A stretch of DNA of 19,891 nt from Candidatus Bathyarchaeia archaeon (lineage in GTDB: Archaea; Thermoproteota; Bathyarchaeia; Bathyarchaeales; Bathycorpusculaceae). Where the stretch lies: positions 1 through 19,891 of the forward strand of contig JAVZLS010000018.1 in the NCBI GenBank assembly GCA_038883715.1, given 5' to 3'. Both the position numbers and the translations under genes were made by a program. Under the pieces are notes generated by a model. It was given only the letters and a program-made list of their open reading frames with translations. It was not told the DNA's origin and searched no databases. Shown one piece after another: positions 1 through 17,246 of this stretch. Position 1 is the stretch's first letter, and every line of letters starts with the position of its first letter.

Positions 1-2027
1 TTGAAGTTGCCCACAAAACCGCTGACTTCAACGACTTCTGCGCCCAAATAGACGTGGATAAGCTTGTTCTCCATAACAGCCTTAACAAGCCTCTTCAAGT
101 GCTTTTGCGGGTCTTCACCCTCAAGCAAATAATAGATTTTCCTCAAGTGTCCGCCAAGCTCTTTTTCGCGTTCTACCAAGTGAACCTCAAAGCCTTGATT
201 AGCCAACTCCAGTGCTGCAGTCATCCCTGAAACGCCGCCGCCGATAACGAGGGCTACTGGAGTGACGTTTACGGTCGGGTTCTTCAATGGCTTTAAGAGT
301 CTTGCCTTTGCAACAACTGAGCGGACAAGGTCTTTGGCTTTTTCCGTTGCCTCTTCTGGCTCGTGCATGTGAACCCAGCTGCACTGGTCTCGGATGTTTG
401 CCATCTCAAAAAGGTAGGGGTTTAATCCGGCCTCGCGGACGGTTTCGCGGAAAAGCGGCTCGTGGGTTCTGGGCGTGCATGAAGCCACAACAACACGATT
501 TAGGTTGTACTCCTTAATCTTCTCCCTAATCCGCTTTTGAGTGTCATCTGAACAGGTGTAAAGGTTTTCTTCAGCATAAACAACGGTTGGAAGCTTCTTA
601 GCGTATTCAACAACTTCTGGAACGCGCACTATGCCGCCGATGTTTATGCCACAGTGGCATATGAAAACTCCTATGCGGGGTTCCTCTTGGCTTACGTCCC
701 TTTCAGGCGGGTACTCCTTAGCAGCAATAAGTTTGCCACGTTCGGGAGCGATTATTGCCATGGCCTTTGCTGCGGCGCCACTTGCTTGGGCAACGCTTTC
801 CGGAATGTCCTTCGGCGAACTGAAGGCTCCGCAAACAAATATGCCGGGCTTCGAGGTTTCCAAGGGTGTGAAGGCGTTGGTTTCGCAGAAACGGTACTTG
901 TTAAGCTTTATCCCAAGCGCTTTAGCCAGTTTCTCCACATCTTTTGGCGGCTGCATGCCCGTGGATAATACAACCATGTCGAATTCTTCAATTCTCGGAG
1001 TCTCATCCTCGCCAACATAATGGACAAGCAGATTGCCAGTTGCTGGGTCCTCTGTTATGCTTGCAACCCTTGAACGAACAAAGCGTATGCCATACTCCTC
1101 CTGGGCACGCTTATAGTAGGCGTCAAACTCCTTCCCATAAGCCCTTATGTCCATGTAGAAAATTGTGCAGTCCAGCTTTGTCGGCACATGCTCCTTGGCT
1201 ATGATGGCTTCTTTAATGCTGTACATACAACAAGCGGCAGAACAATAATTGTTTCCAAGCTGGGCATCCCGCGAACCAACACACTGGACGAAGGCAATTT
1301 TCCGCGGAATCTCGCCGTCTGAAGGTCTCAAAACAACTCCGCCATATGGCCCGGAAGCGCTTAGGATACGCTCAAACTCTATGCTCGTCACAACATTTGC
1401 GTATCGCCCATAACCATATTCACTTTTCAACCGCGCATCAAAAGGTTCAAATCCCGGAGCCAGAATCACCGCGCCAACATTTAACATTATTTCGCTGTCC
1501 TTCTGGTCATATTCAACGGCGTTCGCCTTACAAACCTCTTGGCATGTCCTACAACCGATGCATTTTTCTCGGTCTATCTTGAAGCGTAGCGGAACCGCTT
1601 GCGGAAATTCCACGTATACGGCGCTTCTGTCCGTCAAACCCTTATTGTAGGTGTCTATGGCTTCAACTGGGCATTTTTGTGCACAAAGACCGCAACCGTT
1701 GCATTTCTCTTCGTTTATGTAGCGGCTTCTTTTTCGAATCTTCACTTCGAAGTTTCCAGCCTCGCCTTTCAAGTCCAAAACTTCGCTGTTCGTAATCAAC
1801 GAGATGTTAGGATGCCTCCCAGCAGCAACAAGCTTAGGAGCCAAAATGCACATGGAACAATCGTTTGTCGGGAAAGTCTTGTCAAGCTGAGCCATAACGC
1901 CGCCAATACTGGGCGACTGATCAACCATATACACCTTAAAGCCAGAATCCGCCAAGTCCAAAGCAGCCTGTATCCCAGCAACGCCGCCGCCGACGACCAG
2001 CACTGCGCCAACCTTTCCTTCAGCCAT
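1..2027 (-). CDS. hdrA: Large tandem heterodisulfide reductase subunit A family protein (HdrA/HdrL-type), 3' end truncated by the window edge
   Basis: Not in the ORF track because there is no stop in the window. Hand translation from ATG 2027 is open for 675 codons to base 3: MAEGKVGAVLVVGGGVAGIQAALDLA (FAD Rossmann), DKTFPTNDCSMCI, CNGCGLCAQKCP and CIGCRTCQEVC (2x[4Fe-4S]), QCVGSRD, YCSAACCMYSIK, PKDIPESV, then IGVFICHCG...YTCS...VASCTPRTHE...IRDQCSWVH and a second ALVIGGGVSGMTAALELA. GGAGGTG SD just upstream. Confidence 0.95.
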   Translation of the reverse strand, partial: MAEGKVGAVLVVGGGVAGIQAALDLADSGFKVYMVDQSPSIGGVMAQLDKTFPTNDCSMCILAPKLVAAGRHPNISLITNSEVLDLKGEAGNFEVKIRKRSRYINEEKCNGCGLCAQKCPVEAIDTYNKGLTDRSAVYVEFPQAVPLRFKIDREKCIGCRTCQEVCKANAVEYDQKDSEIMLNVGAVILAPGFEPFDARLKSEYGYGRYANVVTSIEFERILSASGPYGGVVLRPSDGEIPRKIAFVQCVGSRDAQLGNNYCSAACCMYSIKEAIIAKEHVPTKLDCTIFYMDIRAYGKEFDAYYKRAQEEYGIRFVRSRVASITEDPATGNLLVHYVGEDETPRIEEFDMVVLSTGMQPPKDVEKLAKALGIKLNKYRFCETNAFTPLETSKPGIFVCGAFSSPKDIPESVAQASGAAAKAMAIIAPERGKLIAAKEYPPERDVSQEEPRIGVFICHCGINIGGIVRVPEVVEYAKKLPTVVYAEENLYTCSDDTQKRIREKIKEYNLNRVVVASCTPRTHEPLFRETVREAGLNPYLFEMANIRDQCSWVHMHEPEEATEKAKDLVRSVVAKARLLKPLKNPTVNVTPVALVIGGGVSGMTAALELANQGFEVHLVEREKELGGHLRKIYYLLEGEDPQKHLKRLVKAVMENKLIHVYLGAEVVEVSGFVGNF

Positions 2028-2029
2028 CT

Positions 2030-2773
2030 TTATCGCACCTCCAAAGCCTTATACAAAGGCGTATAACCTTCAACATGGTCTAGGGCTATCATGCCCTTCC
2101 GCCTCATGTTCGTTATATGCCTCAAAACAGCAGAAGGCTTTATCCCGAGAATTTGGGCTAACTCCTTAACAGAGCGGGGCTTAATCCTCGCCAAGTGGTG
2201 GATTTTGTAGCGGATGAACTCAGCCCTAACAATATCATCTAATAGGGCGTCAAACTCCGTTTCTGGGATTTTCTCGCCATAAGCGTTCATAAATTCGGTT
2301 AGCTCTTCCTCTCTTCCAAGTAAAACGCGAAGCCTAAAGGCTGAAGCCGCCTCCTTAGCTGCTGTGAGATTGGCTACAATCTCCTCTTTGCTGAGCGGAG
2401 AATTTCCAAGCTTCCAAACCTCTTCGGAGAACACTTTGGCGTAGTGACTGAAGCTTTTGTCTTCTAACGGTGAGACTAACAGGAGCTTCAGTCGTTCAGG
2501 CTCAAGTCCAGCCAATGCCAGCAACTTCTTCAACATTTTAACGGCGCGTTCAGCATGGAGGTTGCCATCAACAAAGTGGCAGTCTGGAGGCTTACACCCA
2601 ACAAGCAACACGCCTTCAGCCCCATTGACAAAAGTTTCCAGAACCAGCGCTGGGTCCATTCTTCCAACACACATAACGCGGATAACATTAACATTGTAAG
2701 GAACACGCAGCTCTTCTTCGCAGAAGGCCCAATTACACATGAAACAAACAATTTTTGGAGGGTTAGACTCCAT
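2030..2773 (-). CDS. mvhD: MvhD/FlpD-type [2Fe-2S] protein fused to a C-terminal ArsR-like winged helix-turn-helix
   Basis: N-terminal CNW...IRVMCVGR...GVLLVGCKPPDCHF...GLEPERL is the MvhD signature. C-terminal RYKIHHLARIKPRSVKELAQILGIKPSAVLRHITNMRRKGMI...GYTPLY fits a wHTH pattern. Confidence 0.85.
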   Translation of the reverse strand: MESNPPKIVCFMCNWAFCEEELRVPYNVNVIRVMCVGRMDPALVLETFVNGAEGVLLVGCKPPDCHFVDGNLHAERAVKMLKKLLALAGLEPERLKLLLVSPLEDKSFSHYAKVFSEEVWKLGNSPLSKEEIVANLTAAKEAASAFRLRVLLGREEELTEFMNAYGEKIPETEFDALLDDIVRAEFIRYKIHHLARIKPRSVKELAQILGIKPSAVLRHITNMRRKGMIALDHVEGYTPLYKALEVR

Positions 2774-2780
2774 TTCTATT

Positions 2781-4496
2781 TCACCTCTCCAAGGCTGTTA
2801 AAACCATTGTGAGAATTTGCTCGTTGGAAAGCTTCTTCATAATTATGGCTCTTTCTGGACAACGTGCCGCACAAAGCCCACAGCCCTTGCAAAGGTCTTC
2901 ATTTACTTGGGCTACACCCTTCTCGTTCTTTTTGATGGCGCCAACTGGGCAGATAACTGCGCAGACATTGCAGCCCACGCATTTGCCCTCATCCACAGCA
3001 GCCTTGTCACCCTCACACAAGTCCATGTTTGCGAGGCACTCCGCACATGGTCCACAACCCAGACAGCGGAAAGCTTCAAACCTTGCTTGACGCTTTAGCT
3101 TTTCAAGATACTCCCTTGCCTCTTCAAAACTTAGGTGGGGCTTCTCTATTGGAGCGTCGTATCGGCGCTCTTTCTTGTCCAGCAACCGCCAGTCCTTAAC
3201 CCACGTGGTTTCCTCAATCTTCTCTTCTTCCCTATCCTTCCGCAGGTCCTCGCCCCTCAAATAACGGTGTATGGAAACCGCTGCACGTTTACCAGCACCA
3301 ACAGCCTCAATGATGCTCGCCGGACCAGTGGCAACATCCCCACCAGCAAAAATCCCCGGAACATTAGTTTCCAATGTCATGGGGTCCACTTGCAGTGGTG
3401 GTCCCCGCTTCTCTTTGCTTATAAGCTCGGGCGGCAAAACAGACGTTTCAACAATCTGTCCAAGAGCCGGGATGACCATGTCCACCTCATATTGATGTTC
3501 TGAAAAGGCAATCGGTATTGGGCGTCTTCTCCCAGTTTCATCAGGCTCGCCCAAGCGCATTCTCAAGCATTCAACAGCCTTAACCCGCCCATTTTCGCCT
3601 ATAATCTGCTTAGGAGCCACCAAGAAATAGAACTTTATCCCATCCTTCTCGGCAAGCTCCACTTCGTGGGGTAGCGCCGGCATCTCCTCGCGAGAACGCC
3701 TATATAGAATTATAACCTCCTTGGCGCCAAGCTTCTTAGCCATTCTTGCAGCGTCTATGGCTGTGTTGCCGCCACCAATAACGGCTACTCTTTCGCCAAC
3801 AGTTATTTTCTTGCCCAGAGCTATGGCCCTTAAAAAGTCTACAGCGTTTATTACGCCTTCTAAGTCTTCGCCTGGCACGTTTAACTTCATGCCCAATTGT
3901 GTGCCAATGGCAAAGAAAATTGCCTTATAACCATCCTTCTTAAGGCTTTCAATGGTTATGTCCTTGCCGAACTCAATGCCAGTTCTAATTTCAACGCCTA
4001 TATCCTTAATGTAGGCTATTTCATTTTCAACAACAAATTTTTCTAGGCGGAAGTCTGGTATGCAATAGCGCATCATGCCGCCAGGCTCAGCCATCCGCTC
4101 AAAAACAGTAACCGGATAACCCAGCTTCGCAAGTTCATAAGCCGCTGTCAAACCAGCTGGTCCAGCACCTATTATGGCTATTCTCTCGCTGTACTTCTTT
4201 GGCACTGGCTCAGCAACAACTCTTCCTTGTTCGCGTTCGATGTCTGCCACGAGCCTCTTTAAGGCGCGTATAGCCACCGCCTGGTCAAGGTTTACCCTTG
4301 CGCATGCATCTTCGCATGGGCTGAAGCAAACCCTTCCACAGATGGCGGGGAAGGGCATGTCCCGCCTTATGACTTCAACAGCTTCCTTAAACTTGCCTCT
4401 CTGGATAAGAGCCACATAAGCTTGAACGTTCACATGTGCTGGACATGCTGCTCGACAAGGAGGTAATTTCCTAACCTCTTGTAATGGCTTTTCCAT
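2781..4496 (-). CDS. GltD/NfnB-like FAD-dependent NAD(P)H oxidoreductase with C-terminal 2x[4Fe-4S] ferredoxin domain
   Basis: PPCRAACP...CGRVCFSPCEDAC Fe-S motifs; IIGAGPAGL (FAD); VIGGGNTAID and YRRS (NADPH-type site); FAGGD; RCLGCGPCAEC; CVGCNVCAVICP and CKGCGLCAARCP. Start is ATG 4496 (AGGCTGA SD-like upstream) or ATG 4523 as in the ORF track. Confidence 0.88.
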   Translation of the reverse strand: MEKPLQEVRKLPPCRAACPAHVNVQAYVALIQRGKFKEAVEVIRRDMPFPAICGRVCFSPCEDACARVNLDQAVAIRALKRLVADIEREQGRVVAEPVPKKYSERIAIIGAGPAGLTAAYELAKLGYPVTVFERMAEPGGMMRYCIPDFRLEKFVVENEIAYIKDIGVEIRTGIEFGKDITIESLKKDGYKAIFFAIGTQLGMKLNVPGEDLEGVINAVDFLRAIALGKKITVGERVAVIGGGNTAIDAARMAKKLGAKEVIILYRRSREEMPALPHEVELAEKDGIKFYFLVAPKQIIGENGRVKAVECLRMRLGEPDETGRRRPIPIAFSEHQYEVDMVIPALGQIVETSVLPPELISKEKRGPPLQVDPMTLETNVPGIFAGGDVATGPASIIEAVGAGKRAAVSIHRYLRGEDLRKDREEEKIEETTWVKDWRLLDKKERRYDAPIEKPHLSFEEAREYLEKLKRQARFEAFRCLGCGPCAECLANMDLCEGDKAAVDEGKCVGCNVCAVICPVGAIKKNEKGVAQVNEDLCKGCGLCAARCPERAIIMKKLSNEQILTMVLTALER

Positions 4497-4540
4497 CAAG
4501 GTTATCAGCCTTCTTAGAAGCATATTTGAATGTTAAACCA

Positions 4541-4601
4541 GATATATTAAGCCATCTAAACCAAACTTAACACAAAATTAACATAAAATTTCAACATAAA
4601 A
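4541..4601 (-). promoter_or_regulatory. Putative promoter of the oxidoreductase-mvhD::HTH-hdrA operon with upstream ~11-bp periodic repeats
   Basis: TTAATATATC on the minus strand at 4541-4550 (TATA-like). Upstream of it lie AAACCAAACTT (4558), AACACAAAATT (4569), AACATAAAATT (4580) and AACATAAAA (4593), given on the plus strand. Confidence 0.45.
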
Positions 4602-4620
4602 AGAGGGGAAATAGAGGGTT

Positions 4621-5211
4621 TTATTCGCGAAGTCTTCCTTCGAGTTTGCTAACCCACTTGTTATATTCCCTAGAGCTTAGAAGGCTTTTGAGCTCCTCCT
4701 CAAGCGTCAAGGAGTTTTTGGGCTTGATCTCGACTATCCAGCCCTCGCCATATGGATCTTCGTTTACTAAGTAAGGCTTATCCTTCAATTTTTCGTTAAC
4801 CTTAACAATTTTGCCGCTTACGGGCGCGTATAAATCAAACATAAACATCCAAGTTTCAGCCACACCAAAGGGCTCCATTTTGGCAACTTCCTTCCCAACG
4901 GGTTCGGTCATTATGTTTGCAATGCCTTTAAGGTGCCTCTGGGCGTAGTCTGAAACACCCACACGGATGTTTCCTTCAGAAGTTATTTGCGCCCATGTGT
5001 GCTTCGGCGTGTACAGTAACTGCTCCGGAATAGCCAAAAGCTCTTCACGTTTTGCGGCTGGAATTCCCTCAGCCCGCATTAGCTCTTCTAAGCGCAGCCT
5101 TATGGCTTCTGAGACAAATTCTGATATGCTTCTGTATCGTCCTGTTCTTAGTAGTCTCTCGATTTCTTTTATTAGCTCTTGCCTTATGCTTACGGTTTTC
5201 CATTCAGACAT
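4621..5211 (-). CDS. Ribbon-helix-helix (CopG-like) DNA-binding domain fused to a glycine-cleavage H-protein-like domain lacking the lipoyl lysine
   Basis: N-terminal WKTVSIRQELIKEIERLLRTGRYRSISEFVSEAIRLRLE is an RHH pattern. C-terminal LLYTPKHTW...VGVSDYAQ...LYAPVSGKIVKVN...VNEDPYGEGWIVEIK is the GcvH fold. GGAGGTTGA SD upstream. Confidence 0.88.
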   Translation of the reverse strand: MSEWKTVSIRQELIKEIERLLRTGRYRSISEFVSEAIRLRLEELMRAEGIPAAKREELLAIPEQLLYTPKHTWAQITSEGNIRVGVSDYAQRHLKGIANIMTEPVGKEVAKMEPFGVAETWMFMFDLYAPVSGKIVKVNEKLKDKPYLVNEDPYGEGWIVEIKPKNSLTLEEELKSLLSSREYNKWVSKLEGRLRE

Positions 5212-5337
5212 TTCACATCAACCTCCTTTACATCTGCGTGATATATAGAGCAAAGCGAAAAATATATATCTAACGTAAATAGAAAATATAGAATAAATAA
5301 ATGTGTTAAAGTAAATACTATAAATAGAGGGAAGCCT
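5212..5337. promoter_or_regulatory. AT-rich divergent promoter region between the RHH-GcvH gene and the PhoU-family regulator
   Basis: 126-bp intergenic region between divergent genes, with several TATA-like tracts (ATATATAG, AATATATATC, TATAAATA). Confidence 0.6.
5275..5289 (+). repeat. 15-bp motif GTAAATAGAAAATAT, copy 1
   Basis: Exact match to 13615-13629. Both copies are intergenic, in the same orientation, upstream of minus-strand genes. Confidence 0.75.
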
Positions 5338-6411
5338 TTGGAAATTAGAAAAGTTCAAAGAGTAGGCCACTCAACAATGACCGTTTCGCTTCCAAACGAG
5401 TGGATTAAAGAACAAGGCATAAAGCCGCGAGACCTCCTATTCATAATGCCAGAAAGGGACGGCTCCCTAAAAATAATGCCAAGGCACGTAGCCCAAAAAG
5501 AGGAAGCCGAAGAATACATTGTCAATGCAGATGCATGCGACGAGCCGGGAATGCTTGAAAGAATAATTGTTGGAAGCTACATTCTCGGGCGAGATGTCAT
5601 AAGGGTAATCTCAACAAGCCGCATAGGCAAAAACCACATAGACGAAGTTCGAAGAATAGTTCAAAAACTTATTGGGTTGGGCATCCTTGAAGAGACTCCC
5701 AAAAGCATACTCTTGCAGTGCTCCATAGACTCCACGAAGTTTAAGCTCGACATGCTCATACGGAGGCTTGCCCTAATAGCTTCAACAATACTTTCTGAGG
5801 CTATGCAGGGCTTTAAGGAGAAAAAATATGACATTGTGGAGGAAGCCATAGCCAGAGAAGACGAGGCCGATAAAATCTACTATTTGGCGGTGCGTCTGCT
5901 TCTTTCCGCGCAAGTAAAACCAGCCATAGCCGAAGAGGTCGGCATGGTGGACGTACTTTTTATACCTGCTGCAAGGCTGATTCTGCAGTATTTGGAGCTG
6001 GTAGCAGATTATTCCGAGGACTTAGCCAAGGAGGTTCTTGAAATGGAGATTTACAGAAATAGGCTTCCAGAGGATGTTGTTGACAGAATATTCCATTTAA
6101 GCGAGCTAACCCAGACAATTCTTCAGAAGGCTATTGAGTGCATCTTCACAAGGGATTTGAAGGTTGCAAACCAGCTTCTGGAAATGAGAAAGGTGCTTGA
6201 GGTGGACTCGAATAGGCTTATGAGGGAAGCTCCAGAAATCCCCTATGTAAGGTCTATTCTCTCCTGCCTAAGCAAGATTGCCGACAAAGGCGCCACAATA
6301 GCTGAAATAGCCATAAACAGAGCCTTAGAAGATCCGAGTAAGTATGTTGGCGATGTTGTCCGGGCAGTTAAGCATGTTAGAACTCTGCCATTGACTATTG
6401 GAAAGAAATAG
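5338..6411 (+). CDS. Archaeal PhoU-family regulator with N-terminal AbrB/SpoVT-like DNA-binding domain
   Basis: MEIRKVQRVGHSTMTVSLPNEWIKEQGIKPRD (AbrB-like N-terminus typical of archaeal phosphate uptake regulators); two PhoU helical repeats (REDEADKIY...LELVADYSEDLA; LSKIADKGATIAE). TTG start. Confidence 0.85.
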   Translation: MEIRKVQRVGHSTMTVSLPNEWIKEQGIKPRDLLFIMPERDGSLKIMPRHVAQKEEAEEYIVNADACDEPGMLERIIVGSYILGRDVIRVISTSRIGKNHIDEVRRIVQKLIGLGILEETPKSILLQCSIDSTKFKLDMLIRRLALIASTILSEAMQGFKEKKYDIVEEAIAREDEADKIYYLAVRLLLSAQVKPAIAEEVGMVDVLFIPAARLILQYLELVADYSEDLAKEVLEMEIYRNRLPEDVVDRIFHLSELTQTILQKAIECIFTRDLKVANQLLEMRKVLEVDSNRLMREAPEIPYVRSILSCLSKIADKGATIAEIAINRALEDPSKYVGDVVRAVKHVRTLPLTIGKK

Positions 6412-8682: not shown

Positions 8683-11103
8683 CTAGGCGAGTTGAAGTGA
8701 GCCTAGCCTTTCCACTTTTTCGGTCATGGCTTTGGCTGCTTCTGCGAATTTGTCGCCTTCTATGAAGACTAGGTTGAACATTTCGAGTCTTTCCGGTTCT
8801 ATGCCATAGGCTTGGAGAAGCGTCTTTGCCATTTCCACCTTTCTTTGGGCTTTTTGACTTCCAACCTCGTAGTGGCATCCGTCAGGCTTGCACCCCACCA
8901 CCATAACGCCTTGGGCTCCAGCCTTAAAGGCTTCGAGAATATGCTGAACTTGGATTATGCCCGTGCATGGAACTCGTAGTACTCTAACGTTGGCTGGGTA
9001 GCTCATCATAGCCATTCCAGAAGAGTCTATTGCTGCGTGGCCACATTCTGAACAGCTGAAAGCAAGAACAAGCGGCTTTGAAGTGCCATTAATAGACAAC
9101 AGCGCCTTTATTTGGGCCGATATTTGACTTGGCTTTAAGTGGCGAAGCTCTATGGCGCCCACTGGGCATGTGCCAACACATACTCCGCAGCCCTCGCATA
9201 AAAGTTCTGAAACCTTAGCCACAAAGTGGCCGTCGCCCTTCGGCTCAAGAGTTATGGCGTTGTATGGGCATGTTACTGGGCAGAACTGGCAATTGCCACA
9301 ATAATCCTCGTTTACAACGGCCACCTTCAAGTCCTTGACTATTTTGCCATTCATAAGGAATTTGGCTGCCTTAACAGCCGCTGAATGGGCATGGAGCGAA
9401 GCTGTTGGGGCATCCTTCGGGAAGACGGCGCCTCCACATATGAATATGCCTCTCCGCTTTGTTTCAGTAGGCCTAAGCTTGGCGTTATACTCCTTAAAGA
9501 AACCGTCTTGGTCCAATTCTATGCCTAGGATTTTCGCCAGCTCCTTTGCGTCTTCAGATGGAACCATGGCTGTGGCTAAAACCACTAGGTCTGCTTCCAA
9601 TTCCAAGAGCCTTCTTAAAAGCTCGTCTTCAACCTCAACAATCAGTGTGTTTGTGGCTGGGTCGTGGATTATTTCGGACGGCCTTCCCTTAACGAATTTT
9701 ATGCCCATTTCCCTTGCTTTCTCATAATAATATTCGTGTTCCCTGCCTGTTGTTCGGATGTCTATGTAGCATATGGTCACGTCGGCGTCTGGATAAGTCT
9801 CTTTAATCAGTGTGGCGTGCTTCAGCGAAATCATACAGCAAATACTCGAGCAGTAGGGGTTCCAGCGTCGGTCCCTTGAGCCTACACACTGCACAAAAAC
9901 AATGCGCTTTGCTGGTTTTCTATCTGAAGGCTTAACTGGCACCCCGCCTGTCGGGCCGAAAGCGTCCAGCATCCTCGCCAATTCCAAATGCGTTATCACG
10001 TCGGGATACTCGCCATAATGATACTCTTTTATGACGCTTGGGTCGTATTCGCGGAAGCCGGTAGCCACAATTATGCTCCCGACGTTAAGTGTCACATGTT
10101 CAGTTTTCTGGTCCAGATTGACGGCTTTTGTTGGGCAAACCTCAACGCATTTGGCGCATTCATGGAACTTGCAGGCTTTGGCGTCTATGGCGTAGGCTGG
10201 CGGGTAAACCAGAGGCCTGTTTATGTAGATTGCTTTCCGCTTTGTGAGCTTGGCGTTATATTCGTCTGGCACTTCGACGGGACAGACGCTTGTACATAGG
10301 TCGCATGCCACACACTTTTTCTCGTCCACATAGCGGGGTTTCCGTTCAACGGTCACCTTGAAGTTCCCCGGGCCTCCCTCAACCTTCACGACTTTAGCGT
10401 TTGTCAAAACACTCAAGTTTGGAATCTCTGAGAAGCCGGAACGGTAAACGCATTTCCTCGATGTTTGGGTCACGGTTTTTAGGTCCGTTGCTGGAGACTG
10501 AATGCATATGGCACAGTCGTCCGTTGGGAAGAAACGGACAGCTTTAGCGGCTAAACCGCCTAAGAAAGGCTCTTTCTCTATCAAGTAGACTTGGAAGCCC
10601 ATGTCCGCCAAGTCTTCGGCTGCCTGCATTCCAGCTATTCCGCCGCCAATAACAAGGATGGATTTGAGGGCTGGGAATTCGGCTTTCTCTATTGGTTCTA
10701 GAAGCTTGGCCTTTTCAATGGCAGCTAGGAGCATTGCCTTAGCCTTTTCAGTAGCCTCTCTCGGCGTGTCCTTGTGGGGCCATGCACAATGGTCCTTTAG
10801 GTCTAAAACCTCCACCAAATGCGGGTTAAGTCCAGCCTCTTCAACAGCTTTCGCGATGGCTATTTCGCTTATTTTTGGTATAGTCTCTGCGACGACGACA
10901 CGGTTTATCTTCTTGGTTTTAATGGCGTCCACCATAGTTTTTAGGCCTTCACCCCGCCAGAACTCGCTTCCCCTAGCGACAAGAGCGACTCCTGGAACAG
11001 TCTTAACAAAGTTTGTTAAGGCTTCAAAATCGAGGATTTTTGCTATTTGCCCACCGCAGTCGGATAGGAAGACTCCAACTTTTGCCTCTTCAACAGTTTT
11101 CAC
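8683..11103 (-). CDS. hdrA: HdrA::MvhD fusion protein (~806 aa)
   Basis: VIGGGIAGMQAA, PTDDCAICI, CVACDLCTSVCP, VQCVGSRD, YCSSICCMISLK, C-terminal 2x[4Fe-4S], then MvhD (FSCSEC...RVPCTG...VGCKPDGCHY...GIEPERL). Start most likely GTG 11103 after AGGAGGG; the 11262 start in the ORF track overlaps mvhA. Confidence 0.92.
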   Translation of the reverse strand: MKTVEEAKVGVFLSDCGGQIAKILDFEALTNFVKTVPGVALVARGSEFWRGEGLKTMVDAIKTKKINRVVVAETIPKISEIAIAKAVEEAGLNPHLVEVLDLKDHCAWPHKDTPREATEKAKAMLLAAIEKAKLLEPIEKAEFPALKSILVIGGGIAGMQAAEDLADMGFQVYLIEKEPFLGGLAAKAVRFFPTDDCAICIQSPATDLKTVTQTSRKCVYRSGFSEIPNLSVLTNAKVVKVEGGPGNFKVTVERKPRYVDEKKCVACDLCTSVCPVEVPDEYNAKLTKRKAIYINRPLVYPPAYAIDAKACKFHECAKCVEVCPTKAVNLDQKTEHVTLNVGSIIVATGFREYDPSVIKEYHYGEYPDVITHLELARMLDAFGPTGGVPVKPSDRKPAKRIVFVQCVGSRDRRWNPYCSSICCMISLKHATLIKETYPDADVTICYIDIRTTGREHEYYYEKAREMGIKFVKGRPSEIIHDPATNTLIVEVEDELLRRLLELEADLVVLATAMVPSEDAKELAKILGIELDQDGFFKEYNAKLRPTETKRRGIFICGGAVFPKDAPTASLHAHSAAVKAAKFLMNGKIVKDLKVAVVNEDYCGNCQFCPVTCPYNAITLEPKGDGHFVAKVSELLCEGCGVCVGTCPVGAIELRHLKPSQISAQIKALLSINGTSKPLVLAFSCSECGHAAIDSSGMAMMSYPANVRVLRVPCTGIIQVQHILEAFKAGAQGVMVVGCKPDGCHYEVGSQKAQRKVEMAKTLLQAYGIEPERLEMFNLVFIEGDKFAEAAKAMTEKVERLGSLQLA

Positions 11104-11134
11104 CCTCGTTTCCCTCCTTTTTCTCCTTACAACT

Positions 11135-12592
11135 TTACCTTTTGATTCTTTGGATGAGCCTTTTCTCGCTGTCATAAATTTCCACCTCCAAAGGCATTTG
11201 GCCAACGGCAAAATGAGTGGCGCATGCGAAACATGGGTCATAAGCCCTAAAGGCCATTTCAATCATGTTTAATATGCCGTCGGTCACTTTGCCCTTCTTG
11301 ATTAAGCCTTTGGCTGCATCCCTAATTGACATGCATATGCCGGGAACATTATGCGTAGTAGCCACAATCAGGTTGACTTTCTTGGCTAGGGCGTTCTCGT
11401 CCAGCTGGTAATGGTGGATAAGCGTTCCACGGGCGGCTTCCACGATGCCCACGCCTTCTCCCGGTTTGCCGGGTTTGTTGCGAATGTTTTTGCTTGTTAT
11501 TTCCGGGTCTGTTACAAGTTCTAGGGCGCGTTCAGCCGCATACAATAATTCAATAAGCCTTGCCCAGTGGTAAGCCAATGTGTTATGAACTGGTTTTCCG
11601 CCTAGTGTGGAGTACATGCGCTCGTATTCGGCTTGGGCTAGGGGTGTTGCCATGCCATCAGCCGCATTAAGTCTTCCAAGAGGACCGACACGGTATACGC
11701 CGTTTTCGGCTCCATCTATGAAGCCTTTCCATCCCACTTTTTTCAGGTATGGAAGTTTAACGTAGGTCCATGGCTCCACACGCTCTTCAATAACGTCCAA
11801 ATACTCTTTAGGTGAGAATTTGACGAATTCGCGTCCGTTGGGGTCTACTACGCGGACGTTTCCGTCGTAGAAGTTTACTTTGTTGTTTTTGTCCACCAAG
11901 CCCATATAGTAGGTTTTGAGCGTGTATGCCTCGCTTTTAATCAGGTCCACGTAGGCGGTGTTTTTCAGAACTATGTCGTCGAAGAGTTTCAGCGAGAACT
12001 TGGCGAATTCTAGGCAGCTTCTTACCATGCGCTCAATTTCTCGGCGCTCTTCTTCTGAGATTGGCCTTGCAAATCCGCCGGGGATGCATGCGCTTACCGG
12101 GTGGGTTGCTTTTCCGCCTAAAATTTCCGTTATTTTTTGGCCATAAGCCCTATGCTTTATAACCTCCTTGCCTATTTCAAGGCCTGCCTTCTCAATGACG
12201 CCTAGAACGTTGCGTTTTTCTGGTGGCGCGTCTGGTCCCACAACAAAGTCGGGGCCGCCAAGATAGTAGAAGTGTAGTGTGTGGTCGTATAGGTAGTAGC
12301 CGCAGTACATAAGCTCGCGGAGTTTTTTAGCTGGCTCTGGCGGTTCAACGTTGAAGGCGGCGTCTAGGGCCTTGGCGCTGGCCATGTGGTGGGCCACTGG
12401 GCATACGCCACATATGCGGGGCGTTATGATGGGCAGATCTTCGGCTCTGCGGCCTTCACAGAATTTTTCGAAGCCGCGGAGTTCCGGGACTTGGAAGTAG
12501 GCTTCGTCCACGTCGCCCTCTTCGTTTAGGAATATGGTTATTTTTCCGTGGCCCTCCAGCCTTGTTATTGGGTTTATAACTATCTCTTTCAT
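11135..12592 (-). CDS. mvhA: [NiFe]-hydrogenase large subunit, MvhA type (group 3c by context)
   Basis: TRLEGHG, RGFEKF, L1 RICGVCPVAH, L2 RAYDPCFACATH followed by a cleavable C-terminal tail; adjacent to hdrA::mvhD. Confidence 0.93.
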   Translation of the reverse strand: MKEIVINPITRLEGHGKITIFLNEEGDVDEAYFQVPELRGFEKFCEGRRAEDLPIITPRICGVCPVAHHMASAKALDAAFNVEPPEPAKKLRELMYCGYYLYDHTLHFYYLGGPDFVVGPDAPPEKRNVLGVIEKAGLEIGKEVIKHRAYGQKITEILGGKATHPVSACIPGGFARPISEEERREIERMVRSCLEFAKFSLKLFDDIVLKNTAYVDLIKSEAYTLKTYYMGLVDKNNKVNFYDGNVRVVDPNGREFVKFSPKEYLDVIEERVEPWTYVKLPYLKKVGWKGFIDGAENGVYRVGPLGRLNAADGMATPLAQAEYERMYSTLGGKPVHNTLAYHWARLIELLYAAERALELVTDPEITSKNIRNKPGKPGEGVGIVEAARGTLIHHYQLDENALAKKVNLIVATTHNVPGICMSIRDAAKGLIKKGKVTDGILNMIEMAFRAYDPCFACATHFAVGQMPLEVEIYDSEKRLIQRIKR

Positions 12593-13539: not shown

Positions 13540-13563
13540 TCTCCTCACCAGTCATGTATAATT

Positions 13564-13639
13564 TTAATGAAGCTAGATTATTGCAGCTTCTATAATTTAA
13601 ATTTAGCTCATTGAGTAAATAGAAAATATGCTTCATTAA
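13564..13639 (-). promoter_or_regulatory. Putative mvhG operon promoter bracketed by a 10-bp inverted repeat
   Basis: TTAATGAAGC (13564-13573) and GCTTCATTAA (13630-13639) are perfect reverse complements. Between them are a TATA-like TTTAAATTATA (minus strand, ~13591-13601) and the 15-bp motif. Confidence 0.5.
13615..13629 (+). repeat. 15-bp motif GTAAATAGAAAATAT, copy 2
   Basis: Exact match to 5275-5289. Confidence 0.75.
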
Positions 13640-13678: not shown

Positions 13679-16471
13679 CTAACCTGTTGCCGCTTCTTCA
13701 GCCTCTTTACCAGTTCCCTTTTCTACGCCAAGCACCGTTTCTGGAGTTTTCGTCTTTTCTACGGGTTTGATTGGCGGTCCCTCTTCTTTTAGGTTTAGGG
13801 TCCCCCTTATCGTGCCGTCCTCCATATACTTCAGCTGGAAGCCCAAATTTCGCATAAGCTCAATAGCCTTTCGGTTTTCTGGAAGCATTATTCCATAAAT
13901 GCTTTCTAGGCCTCTTTCTCTGCATATTTCTATAACGTAGTCCACGAGCTTTGTTCCTAGGCCTAAGCCTTGCCACGGATCCGCCACCAGAAAGGCTATT
14001 TCGCCTGTTTTTCCGTCTAATTCTATGCTGACTCTGGCTGTTCCAATGATTTTTCTTTTGCCGTTTTCTGTTAGTTCGGCGACTATGGCTATTTCTCGGT
14101 CGTAGTCTATGTTGCAGTAGCGGACCCTAACTTCGTGGGGCATATGCTTAAGGGTCTGGAAAAGCTTGTAGCGGATGGACTCTTCTGAGCAGTTTTTGAA
14201 CATTTCAAGCCACAGTGGCTCGTCTTCGGGTTTTATGGGTCTCAAAAGCACTGTTCTGCCGTCTCGGAGTTTCCACAAAGTTTCATACTTTTTGGGGTAG
14301 GGGCTTATAACCAAGTGTTGGTGGGGTTCCACTTTCCGGAATATGAGTTCTTTGTCTATTATTATGCGAGCGTCTATGGCTATGGCGTCCTTTTCATCCA
14401 CAAGCAGTGGGTTAATGTCAATCTCCTTTATTTGTGGAAAGTCTATTAGCAGATGCGAGAAGAGGACCATAACCTCTTCTAGGCGTTTAATGTTGGCTGG
14501 CGGCATATTCCGGTAACCTTTCAAAAGCTGGTAAACCTTTGTTTCTTCCATCATGCGTCTAGCCAACGTCTGGTTTAGCGGTGGCAAGCCTATGGAGAAG
14601 TCCTTGAAAAGCTCCACGCCTATGCCGCCCATTCCAAACATTATGATTGGACCGAAGACTATGTCCTTCTTTGACCCTAAAATGACCTCATAGCCACGTC
14701 TCTTAATCATCGGCTGAACTGTGACGCCGATTATTTGGGCTTTCGGGTTGTATTTTTTGGCGTTCTTCATTATGGTTCTGAAGGCTTCTCTAACTTCGTC
14801 TTCGCTTTTAATGTCGAGGATTACTCCGCCAGCATCCGTCTTATGAATTATCTGAGGAGAAAGAACCTTCAAGACCACCGGGTAGCCGATTCGCGAGGCA
14901 ATGGCAACGGCCTCATCCTCGTCCTTAGCAATATAGGTTTTCACCACTGGAAAGTTGTAAAACTCCAAAACTTTTTTGGCTTCAAACTCTGTTAGTACTT
15001 CACGGTTTTCAAGCGCTGCGCCCTTCAAAATAGCCAATATAGGAAGCTTAGGCGGAGAAAGGTCGACAGGCAATTCTTCTGGAGTTTCATAGAGCAGTTC
15101 GAGGTTTCGCTTGTACTGGTACATGTAAAGGTAGGTTTTCACCGCTTGCTCTGGAGTGGAGAAGGTTGGAATCTCGTTGGCGTTGAATATGAAGTTCGCC
15201 TCTTCCACAGCCTTCCTACCCATAAAAGACGTTAGGATCGTTTTGCCCCGCTGCCCCTTACTTTTCAAAAGCTCCACTATGCTCTTTGCAATTTCAACGG
15301 GTTCCGCCACTGCTTGAGCCGTGTAAATGATGAGGATTCCGTCAACGTTTTCGTCGTTTAGGCATGCTTCTAAAACGGCTTTGTAGCGGTCGGCTTTGGC
15401 GTCGCCTAAAATGTCTATTGGGTTTCCATGGCTCCAGTATGGCGGAAGAATACTGTTAAGATATTCCATTGTCTGGGGGCTTAGCTTTGCGAGTTTTCCT
15501 CCCATCCCTATGAGGGCGTCGGTAGCCATAACGCCTGGACCGCCAGCATTCGTTATTATTGCAAGGTTTGGGCCTCGGGGTAGTGGTTGCATGCCCAAAA
15601 CTTCGGCGCAGTTGAATAGATCTGCTATTTCTTCTACGCGTACTATTCCGGCACGTTTGAACGCTGCATCATAAACGTCATCCTCGCCTGTAAGCGAACC
15701 CGTGTGCGAGGCGGCTGCCTTTGCGCTTTCGCTGTATTTTCCAGCTTTTACAACGATTATTGGTTTTGTTCTGGCGAAGTGTCTTGCGGCACTCATGAAC
15801 TTGCGGGCGTTTGTTATGCCCTCAATATACATGAGGATGCTTCGCGTTTTGGGGTCTGTTCCAAAATGGTCTATTAAATCGCCGAAGTCCACGTCTATCA
15901 TGGAGCCTACGGAGACGAAGTGGCTGAAGCCAACATTCTCATGAACAGCCCAATCCAATATGGCTGTGCCGAGGGCTCCGCTCTGGCTTATGAAGGCAAT
16001 GTTGCCAGGTCTTGGCATCTTATTAATGAATGTGGCGTTTAGGCGTATACTTGGGCGGATAATTCCCAAACAGTTGGGTCCAATAATGCGTAAATCGTAT
16101 TTTCGCTTTATCTCAAGAATCTTATCCTCGAGGGCTTTGCCTTCTGGACCGGTCTCCTTAAAACCAGCACTTATAATTATTAGCCCTTTTATTCCGGCTC
16201 TGCCGCACTGCTCAACCACGTCCGGAACAGTTTTGGCTGGAGTGGCTATAACCGCCAAATCAACAGTTTTTGGAAGCTGCTCTACGGTTTGGTAGGCTTT
16301 AACGCCTAAAATCTCTTTTTTGCGGATGTTTACTGGGTAAACTTCCCCCTCAAAACCAGACTCAAGAAAGTTTTTCATTAGGGCGTAGCCTACAGAACCT
16401 TCCTCGTCGCTGGCGCCAACAACAGCCACGCTTTTAGGGTTAAAAATCTTGTCAAGATGTAAGGTAACCAA
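13679..16471 (-). CDS. ADP-forming acyl-CoA synthetase (alpha+beta domains) fused to a C-terminal GNAT acetyltransferase (Pat-like architecture)
   Basis: PKSVAVVGAS CoA-binding domain, IIGPNCLG, SQSGALG, AAASHTGSL, TNAGGPG, NPIDILGDA; ATP-grasp GYPVVLK...IIHKTDAGGV, EIDINPL; GNAT LLRPIKPED...VADPWQGLGLGTKL. TTG start. Confidence 0.92.
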   Translation of the reverse strand: MVTLHLDKIFNPKSVAVVGASDEEGSVGYALMKNFLESGFEGEVYPVNIRKKEILGVKAYQTVEQLPKTVDLAVIATPAKTVPDVVEQCGRAGIKGLIIISAGFKETGPEGKALEDKILEIKRKYDLRIIGPNCLGIIRPSIRLNATFINKMPRPGNIAFISQSGALGTAILDWAVHENVGFSHFVSVGSMIDVDFGDLIDHFGTDPKTRSILMYIEGITNARKFMSAARHFARTKPIIVVKAGKYSESAKAAASHTGSLTGEDDVYDAAFKRAGIVRVEEIADLFNCAEVLGMQPLPRGPNLAIITNAGGPGVMATDALIGMGGKLAKLSPQTMEYLNSILPPYWSHGNPIDILGDAKADRYKAVLEACLNDENVDGILIIYTAQAVAEPVEIAKSIVELLKSKGQRGKTILTSFMGRKAVEEANFIFNANEIPTFSTPEQAVKTYLYMYQYKRNLELLYETPEELPVDLSPPKLPILAILKGAALENREVLTEFEAKKVLEFYNFPVVKTYIAKDEDEAVAIASRIGYPVVLKVLSPQIIHKTDAGGVILDIKSEDEVREAFRTIMKNAKKYNPKAQIIGVTVQPMIKRRGYEVILGSKKDIVFGPIIMFGMGGIGVELFKDFSIGLPPLNQTLARRMMEETKVYQLLKGYRNMPPANIKRLEEVMVLFSHLLIDFPQIKEIDINPLLVDEKDAIAIDARIIIDKELIFRKVEPHQHLVISPYPKKYETLWKLRDGRTVLLRPIKPEDEPLWLEMFKNCSEESIRYKLFQTLKHMPHEVRVRYCNIDYDREIAIVAELTENGKRKIIGTARVSIELDGKTGEIAFLVADPWQGLGLGTKLVDYVIEICRERGLESIYGIMLPENRKAIELMRNLGFQLKYMEDGTIRGTLNLKEEGPPIKPVEKTKTPETVLGVEKGTGKEAEEAATG

Positions 16472-16892: not shown

Positions 16893-17246
16893 ATGCCAAT
16901 AGATACTTTTGAGTTATTAGGACTTAAGTCGAGTAAACCTAAAAGGGATTCAAGAAGGGCGTTTACAGCAACCCAAAAGAAGGAAATCCTATATCAGCAA
17001 GACAATAAATGTGCTAGATGCCATAAACCATTAGACCCTAGGGCAACCCATTTCCATCATATTAAGCCTTGGTCTGCTGGTGGAAGGACCATAACTGTCA
17101 ATGGAGCCGCAGTATGTGCAAATTGTCACGAAATCATAACACATAAAGAAAGACTCAAAAAAGTGGATAAGAAAAGAAGAAGAAAAAAGGAATCTGACAT
17201 TTTTGACTTATCTAAAGTAAAATCCCTCAGAGATATTATCTTTTGA
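16893..17246 (+). CDS. Stand-alone HNH endonuclease
   Basis: RRAFTATQKKEILYQQDNKCARC...HFHHIKPWSAGGRTITVNGAAVCANCH: Zn-binding CxxC pairs around an HH...N...H core. Confidence 0.85.
   Translation: MPIDTFELLGLKSSKPKRDSRRAFTATQKKEILYQQDNKCARCHKPLDPRATHFHHIKPWSAGGRTITVNGAAVCANCHEIITHKERLKKVDKKRRRKKESDIFDLSKVKSLRDIIF

Follow-up and report, generated by a model that had tools for sequence, protein, structure and literature searches.

The locus analysed here raises the question of what a protein with the fold of GcvH does once the lysine that would carry lipoate is gone and a ribbon-helix-helix (RHH) domain stands in front of it. We addressed this question in a window of 19,891 nt (contig JAVZLS010000018.1, assembly GCA_038883715.1), which is the whole stretch of DNA that was analysed and belongs to a Candidatus Bathyarchaeia archaeon genome of 1.33 Mb (90% complete). 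A preliminary description of the same DNA had proposed that the gene encodes an H-protein mimic that cannot be lipoylated and that serves as the sensor or decoy domain of a regulator of Hdr/Mvh genes.

An RHH domain fused to a GcvH fold

The gene and its parts are as follows:

4621..5211, minus strand: RHH-GcvH-like gene, 196 aa plus stop codon
5083..5202, minus strand: ribbon-helix-helix motif (residues 4-43), with the strand segment W-K-T-V-S-I-R, two helices and SEFVSEAI
4648..5031, minus strand: GcvH-fold domain (residues 61-188), from the GCV_H match, AF2 and Foldseek
4834..4857, minus strand: hairpin E119-T-W-M-F-M-F-D126 replacing the lipoylation loop, with Met122 (4846-4848) at the lysine position

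The start codon is an ATG (5211-5209) with a Shine-Dalgarno sequence, GGAGG at 5226-5222, ten bases 5' of it. Pfam searches of the 196-aa protein gave a GCV_H match over residues 65-188 (E = 1.5e-31) and an RHH_1 match over residues 6-43 at 18.6 bits, under the cut-off of 20.5; when residues 1-58 were scanned alone, RHH_1 rose above that cut-off (22.1 vs 20.5 bits), and it was also matched by 16 of 25 family N-termini. A profile of the family N-termini found the RHH domain of H. pylori NikR as its best PDB match (E = 0.004), and the NikR models run against the window protein itself gave E values of 0.064 and 0.16, far under their cut-offs.

The AF2 model of the protein, based on an 82-row alignment, had a mean pLDDT of 85, with 10-residue block means of 88-97 across the GcvH domain, and the top Foldseek matches of this model were GcvH structures (target-normalised TM of 0.86-0.94 for the best twelve). 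The model is a monomer and draws residues 6-22 and 29-47 as helices without an N-terminal strand, which we counted neither for nor against an RHH fold, since the ribbon is an intermolecular feature of the dimer. In the ESM Atlas, the only matches were Bathyarchaeota clusters to which the protein itself belongs, under the name "GCV_H domain-containing". Pfam and the family profile, together with AF2 and Foldseek for the GcvH fold, thus agree with the preliminary description that an RHH domain is fused ahead of a GcvH-like domain, and the N-terminal RHH and the confident GcvH fold constitute a genuine, conserved fusion. Read from its sequence, the protein contains no cysteine and only two histidines, and without cysteine a thiol switch is out.

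Loss of the lipoyl-lysine in a family beside the canonical GcvH

We further compared the lipoylation loop with known GcvH proteins and found that it aligned without gaps to M. tuberculosis GcvH (3ift) and T. thermophilus GcvH (1onl) using HMMER, and to the canonical GcvH of the same genome (40% identity, BLASTP). E-S-V/T-K stands opposite E119-T120-W121-M122 in all three alignments, and the placement of the lost lysine at Met122 in the preliminary description is therefore confirmed against each of them; E. coli H-protein chains were also among the structure matches (3a8i_E, E = 2.3e-21). Among the best 120 homologues (84-99% identity, from a collection of 5.8 billion proteins), methionine occupied the lysine position in all 120 and lysine in none, while the residue two past Met122 was methionine in 117 and isoleucine, leucine or valine in one each, and the loop ETWMF[MILV]FDL was kept. 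Because methionine recurs at this position in 120/120 homologues, these alignments exclude faulty base calling and an isolated assembly artefact as its cause, in line with the earlier argument against a single-base error, and the protein as encoded cannot carry lipoate at the canonical site. The loss of lysine, whose conservation in orthologues the preliminary description had asked about, is thus conserved, and none of 40 aligned family members had lysine at the canonical site. In sister subfamilies, Met122 and Met124 give way to W, L, F, K, R, T or further residues.

Next, we examined the wider family using representatives of 50%-identity clusters, of which only 16 reached the threshold of E = 1e-30. 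The RHH-fused representatives lacked the lysine and had mostly aromatic loops (ETWMFKFDL, ETWLSTYDL, ESWWFTRDL, ETVARWPLVIHDL, ETPGWWYLRDL and LTRFAHVDL). Across 149 aligned rows (148 representatives and the window's protein), lysine was present at the site in 108 and absent from 41, three of which have a gap at this column. In a quick maximum-likelihood tree of 143 GcvH domains (7 fragments left out, own canonical GcvH added), all 10 RHH-fused rows fell together with 13 RHH-less rows, several of the latter being N-terminally truncated, in one 23-row clade (SH-aLRT 86, not starred). No row of this clade bears the lysine, compared with 109 lysine-bearing rows among the 120 outside it. This pattern agrees, with moderate support, with the lysine having been lost just once, at the root of the family. 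Other lysine-less GcvH-like proteins differ: only the clade of the window's protein has the RHH fusion and the W-M-F-M-F hairpin.

All of the best homologues that bear a name came from Bathyarchaeia, Bathyarchaeota, Thermoproteota or similarly labelled groups, and species-representative genomes gave some 45 full-length matches, all titled Bathyarchaeia, Bathyarchaeota, Bathyarchaeales or Thermoproteota; one cluster includes a member named Baldrarchaeota. Most of the named best homologues are annotated as "glycine cleavage system protein GcvH". No description of the RHH-GcvH fusion or its family was found in full-text literature searches or in the accessible parts of PMC6067878, PMC11237513 and PMC7325993, whose supplements could hold gene tables.

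Two families of the order (f4 and f5) carry two RHH-GcvH-like genes in tandem (L054-L058, L065 and L067). The loop reads E[ST]WWFT[YH]DL in the A-type paralogue and ETWMF[MKRV]F[DEN]L in the B type, which includes the window's protein. We also found a natural A-B fusion of 417 aa (P0121) with two GCV_H matches; when it was aligned to family members, every row fell on its second half. The tandem genes and the fusion would suit A and B paralogues that pair with one another, in the manner of RHH proteins. Separately, a protein of 1391 aa (P0131) combines three lysine-less GCV_H domains with FAD_binding_4, FAD-oxidase_C, 4Fe-4S dicluster and two CCG domains, and is thus a GlcD/HdrD-like enzyme bearing H-protein folds without lipoylation sites.

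The same genome has a canonical GcvH of 139 aa on contig C9 with its lysine kept (VESVKAVSDL), a GcvT about 32 kb from it on the same contig, GcvPA/PB on C8, and two BPL/LplA/LipB-family genes on C12 and C25. As the preliminary description had stated for gcvP, gcvT and lipoate ligase, no member of the gcvT, gcvP or lipoate-ligase families was present among the 14 large ORFs of the window. The RHH-GcvH-like protein is not the cell's H-protein but a dedicated paralogue that exists alongside a complete set of canonical glycine cleavage genes. Two weak GCV_H matches on C12 were considered as further paralogues and rejected, being biotin-carrier domains of carboxylases. Four nucleotides downstream of the canonical GcvH gene (C9; L001 1465-3249) lies a 453-aa ORF that looks by eye like a pyridine-nucleotide-disulfide oxidoreductase and may be an L-protein-like partner.

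A divergent pair of putative regulators beside hydrogen and redox operons

The genes that flank the RHH-GcvH-like gene are as follows:

5338..6411, plus strand: divergent AbrB(MazE/SpoVT)-PhoU regulator (PhoU E = 3e-14; MazE_antitoxin 24.8 bits vs cut-off 24.7, residues 1-61)
2781..4523, minus strand: GltD/NfnB-like Fe-S flavoprotein, whose gene opens the downstream operon
2030..2773, minus strand: fusion of an MvhD domain with a winged HTH (ArsR/MarR-like), from Pfam matches
3..2027, minus strand: HdrA-like flavoprotein, running off the window

Beyond AbrB-PhoU, the window encodes hdrB, hdrC, hdrA-mvhD, mvhA and mvhG. The MvhD-HTH protein (2030-2773, minus strand) has a [2Fe-2S]-type FlpD domain and a C-terminal HTH_5 match (25.0 bits vs cut-off 22), and may be a regulator that senses redox state and is encoded within the hdr-like operon. 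The HdrA-MvhD ORF, which opens with TTG, overlaps the end of mvhA by 128 nt (ORFs 8683-11262 and 11135-12592, minus strand), and probably begins further downstream than listed. The region immediately ahead of the mvhG operon (13679-16471, minus strand) encodes a 930-aa fusion of an ADP-forming acyl-CoA synthetase-like protein and a GNAT acetyltransferase, which we take to be the architecture of a Pat-type protein acetyltransferase, and a lone HNH endonuclease ORF of 117 aa lies among the metabolic genes at 16893-17246 (plus strand).

We then compared 25 loci from 22 genomes by searching them with the window's proteins (tblastn). AbrB-PhoU was divergently adjacent to the RHH-GcvH-like gene in 21 of the 25; of the four others, one lay at a contig end, one was a truncated copy and two were the second copies of tandem pairs. 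Downstream, the GltD-like/MvhD-HTH/HdrA-like operon was present in 17/25 loci, and the downstream operon differed in the g23 group, where one locus (L048, by Pfam) encodes TauE, HoxE/F/U-like subunits and a [NiFe] hydrogenase. At the two second copies (L057 and L058; 2/25 loci), tblastn detected no hdr, mvh or PhoU gene, and a scan of seven ORFs around the L057 pair gave PNPOx-like, BpsA/GNAT and ribosomal protein L3 families (Pfam). In the genome G321, a single contig that is 90% complete, the pair is present without an adjacent PhoU gene. In five loci (L040-L044), a small ORF that is apparently a membrane protein (MEKPIRSFAKAVSWRIVA...) lies between PhoU and the RHH-GcvH-like gene, and the promoter-proximal boxes of the latter are kept beside it. 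A complex prediction for AbrB-PhoU with the RHH-GcvH-like protein scored 0.00, which is uninformative either way.

Across 151 genomes of the order, whose kinship means that the counts are not independent and describe the sample without a test, the RHH-GcvH-like gene was found in 40 at E = 1e-40 (2 of the 40 match the GcvH part only), so that the fusion is not the one-off that the preliminary description had allowed for. Full-length matches down to 47% identity had no internal stop order-wide. An orthologous PhoU gene (at least 47% identity, or cut by a contig end) was present in 42/151 genomes and accompanied the RHH-GcvH-like gene in 36/151, side by side on one contig in 33 of these 36 (33/151). 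An MvhD-HTH orthologue occurred in 44/151 genomes and together with the RHH-GcvH-like gene in 25/151 (25/40 of the gene carriers). Six genomes had PhoU with no RHH-GcvH-like match at this threshold. Loci were examined in five of them: one held a more divergent adjacent RHH-GcvH-like copy (39% identity), PhoU directly faced an HdrA-like gene in two, and tblastn found no neighbour in two. The constant unit is therefore this divergent pair of putative regulators, set beside varying hydrogen or redox operons. The tie to Hdr/Mvh genes in the preliminary description is accordingly upheld in part: the hdr-like operon is downstream in most loci, but the most constant partner is AbrB-PhoU, and hdr/mvh synteny gives way to a Hox-type hydrogenase in the g23 group.

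The candidate cis elements are as follows:

5240..5270, minus strand: inverted repeat GATATATA-N15-TATATATC of the RHH-GcvH-like promoter, with 28 nt between its end and the ATG; candidate for a TATA box and an operator
5275..5289, minus strand: 15-mer ATATTTTCTATTTAC, close to the first TATA-like box on its upstream side
13615..13629, minus strand: second copy of the 15-mer ATATTTTCTATTTAC, some 66 nt ahead of mvhG, which starts at 13548
4598..4602, minus strand: run of five T, about 19 nt past the stop codon
4542..4550, minus strand: TATA-like TTAATATAT, about 23 nt before the ATG of the GltD-like gene, where a Shine-Dalgarno sequence is absent

The inverted repeat matched once in the window vs no match in 200 shuffles, and this match is the sole one in the 1.33 Mb genome. 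A regular expression for the palindrome matched 11 of 22 orthologous intergenic regions, and most of the remaining ones show, by eye, two TATATAT-like boxes at the same spacing. The first TATATAT box lies at the expected place of a TATA box and the second near the expected transcription start, a layout that suggests an autorepressed archaeal promoter; given their AT-rich sequence, however, both boxes may be ordinary TATA boxes. With one mismatch allowed, AGTATTTAC was not enriched in the window (3 found vs 3.8 expected).

The 12-mer core of the repeated 15-mer, TTTTCTATTTAC, has three copies in the genome when both strands are counted, among them the one ahead of the RHH-GcvH-like gene and the one in the promoter of the mvhG operon. 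Of 7 orthologous regions upstream of mvhG, 4 show a near-identical core at the corresponding position, as do the closest orthologous promoters of the RHH-GcvH-like gene. This shared 12-mer/15-mer was found post hoc and serves as a lead only, ATATTTTCTATTTAC being a candidate shared operator for the RHH-GcvH-like gene and mvhG. The locus encodes three putative DNA-binding proteins, AbrB-PhoU, the RHH-GcvH-like protein and MvhD-HTH, any of which could bind the 12-mer. Another motif, TTAAGTTTGR-N-GCTTAAT, occurs upstream of the GltD-like gene and mvhG (2 genome copies); it was derived from those same two sites and was dropped, being absent from the 7 orthologous mvhG regions. A T-run right after the stop codon recurs in 11 rows of family f1 (window and L035-L044) and would be terminator-like in archaea. 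Given the T-run, the TATA-like box and the absence of a Shine-Dalgarno sequence, the GltD-like operon probably has a separate, nearly leaderless promoter.

A probable NikR-style regulator and its alternatives

We consider it probable (roughly 60%) that the RHH-GcvH-like protein is a NikR-style transcription factor, in which an RHH domain is followed by a C-terminal effector domain derived from GcvH. Starting from the architecture, the lysine loss, conservation, synteny, co-occurrence and shared cis elements described above, we infer DNA binding, target genes and a signal as follows. The effector domain would retain the GcvH fold, with the lipoyl-lysine lost once at the family base and the aromatic/methionine hairpin E-T-W-M-F-M-F in its stead. 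RHH dimers may bind the palindromic double TATATAT box of the gene's own promoter, which would result in autoregulation, and the protein and the divergent AbrB-PhoU may jointly control the flanking hydrogen and electron-bifurcation operons. Here these would be the GltD-like/MvhD-HTH/HdrA-like and mvhGA-hdrACB operons, and in the sister genus a Hox-type hydrogenase; we give even odds that the flanking hydrogenase/Hdr operons are the targets. The GcvH-like domain would then act as a sensing or oligomerising surface, with the hairpin binding a protein partner or a hydrophobic ligand. Methionine oxidation or lipoyl-arm mimicry may play a part, but neither is indicated by the sister subfamilies, whose hairpins vary.

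A special case of the regulator model, which takes up the decoy idea of the preliminary description, is that the hairpin acts as a mimic or decoy of the lipoyl arm and docks into a pocket for the lipoyl-lysine arm or a similar hydrophobic thiol cofactor, and that the availability of the partner, for example an Hdr-like CCG subunit or a lipoate-handling enzyme, sets DNA binding. The hairpin does sit exactly at the lipoyl-lysine turn and is hydrophobic and sulfur-containing, the RHH-GcvH-like genes adjoin hdr-type operons, and lysine-less GcvH domains are also fused to the FAD-oxidase/CCG (HdrD-like) enzyme P0131. However, the hairpin varies widely among subfamilies (WWFTY, WLSTH, VARWPLVIH), one genus group has a Hox hydrogenase downstream without hdr, and the large ORFs of the locus in the window include no lipoate ligase or lipoyl enzyme. 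We therefore regard this possibility as unlikely, and it seems equally doubtful that the domain mimics a lipoylated H-protein or carrier arm, its hairpin entering the arm pocket of a redox enzyme, Hdr-like or not, so that the occupancy of this enzyme is read out directly as hydrogenase/hdr transcription jointly with AbrB-PhoU. A role outside regulation, as a subunit or assembly factor of an Hdr-like/GltD-like complex in which the RHH part is a dimerisation module and the GcvH fold a scaffold, would agree with the position of the gene directly upstream, and on the same strand, of the GltD-like/MvhD/HdrA-like genes in 17/25 loci, and with the structural use of barrel-sandwich domains in RnfC and NqrA (weak Pfam cross-matches). 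Such a role is likewise improbable in view of the gene's own promoter signals, the T-run after its stop codon, the separate TATA-like box ahead of the GltD-like gene, the closer co-occurrence with AbrB-PhoU (36/40) than with the MvhD-HTH operon (25/40), and the proximity to a different enzyme system, Hox.

Met/Trp sites bind soft metals such as Cu(I) or Ag(I) in CusF, and a Trp/Met hairpin that binds Cu(I) or Ag(I) would turn the protein into a metal sensor, an RHH regulator functionally like NikR. W121, M122 and M124 lie close together and show little or no variation in the best 120 homologues, the RHH profile is closest to NikR, and [NiFe] hydrogenase operons are neighbours; yet cysteine is absent, there are only two histidines, sister subfamilies do not keep the methionines, and no metal transporter is encoded among the window's large ORFs, which makes metal sensing very unlikely. 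The least credible reading, with only a slight chance, is that another lysine lets the protein work as a lipoyl carrier like GcvH or LbpA, or that the gene is a GcvH pseudogene in decay. PRK01202 (NCBIfam) scores the protein above its cut-off (127.3 vs 117), databases call it GcvH, and some paralogues have a lysine two residues downstream (ETWMFKFDL). In contrast, the score for the gcvH equivalog TIGR00527 is below its cut-off (105 vs 115.85 bits), lysine is missing from the canonical site in 120/120 homologues, the downstream position varies among M, K, R, V, I and L, and a canonical GcvH is encoded elsewhere in the genome; decay is further opposed by the loop kept in the best 120 homologues and by the full-length matches free of internal stops.

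The proposed NikR-style regulator shares features with several known systems. It resembles GcvH (PF01597, TIGR00527) in fold and by homology (40% identity to the genome's own GcvH; TM 0.86-0.94), whereas it has a methionine in an aromatic hairpin at the lipoyl-lysine position, an RHH domain fused ahead, a gene unlinked to gcvT/gcvP and a score under the equivalog cut-off. With NikR it shares an N-terminal RHH domain followed by a C-terminal effector domain, as well as the match of the family RHH profile to the H. pylori protein (E = 0.004), but the C-terminal domain of NikR is an ACT-like nickel-binding domain and the one here is a GcvH barrel-sandwich. TIGR03077 (not_gcvH) and NF045810 (GcvH_rel_desulf) likewise describe a GcvH fold that serves functions other than glycine cleavage, although the window protein reaches 46 bits vs cut-offs of 144-150. 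LbpA is a lipoate-binding, GcvH-like protein of sulfur-oxidising Hdr-like systems and needs its lysine and dedicated lipoate ligases (PMC6067878). Both are GcvH-like proteins encoded beside hdr-type genes, but the protein studied here lacks the lysine, has no BPL_LplA_LipB gene in the window and has neighbours of the Mvh/Hdr and Hox types; the parallel to LbpA drawn in the preliminary description was not substantiated here.

If the regulator reading is correct, RHH regulators would gain a new type of effector domain, and a cofactor-carrier fold that has lost its cofactor site would have been recruited to a probable regulatory role. The public naming of these proteins as GcvH is wrong and can lead metabolic reconstructions to overcount glycine-cleavage or reductive-glycine capacity. 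Very little has been established about the control of hydrogen and electron-bifurcation genes in uncultured Bathyarchaeia, and the locus offers a compact, testable cassette composed of AbrB-PhoU, the RHH-GcvH-like protein, MvhD-HTH and candidate operators. Should lipoyl-arm mimicry prove true, it would represent a novel sensing mode, in which the cell reads the state of an electron-bifurcating complex.
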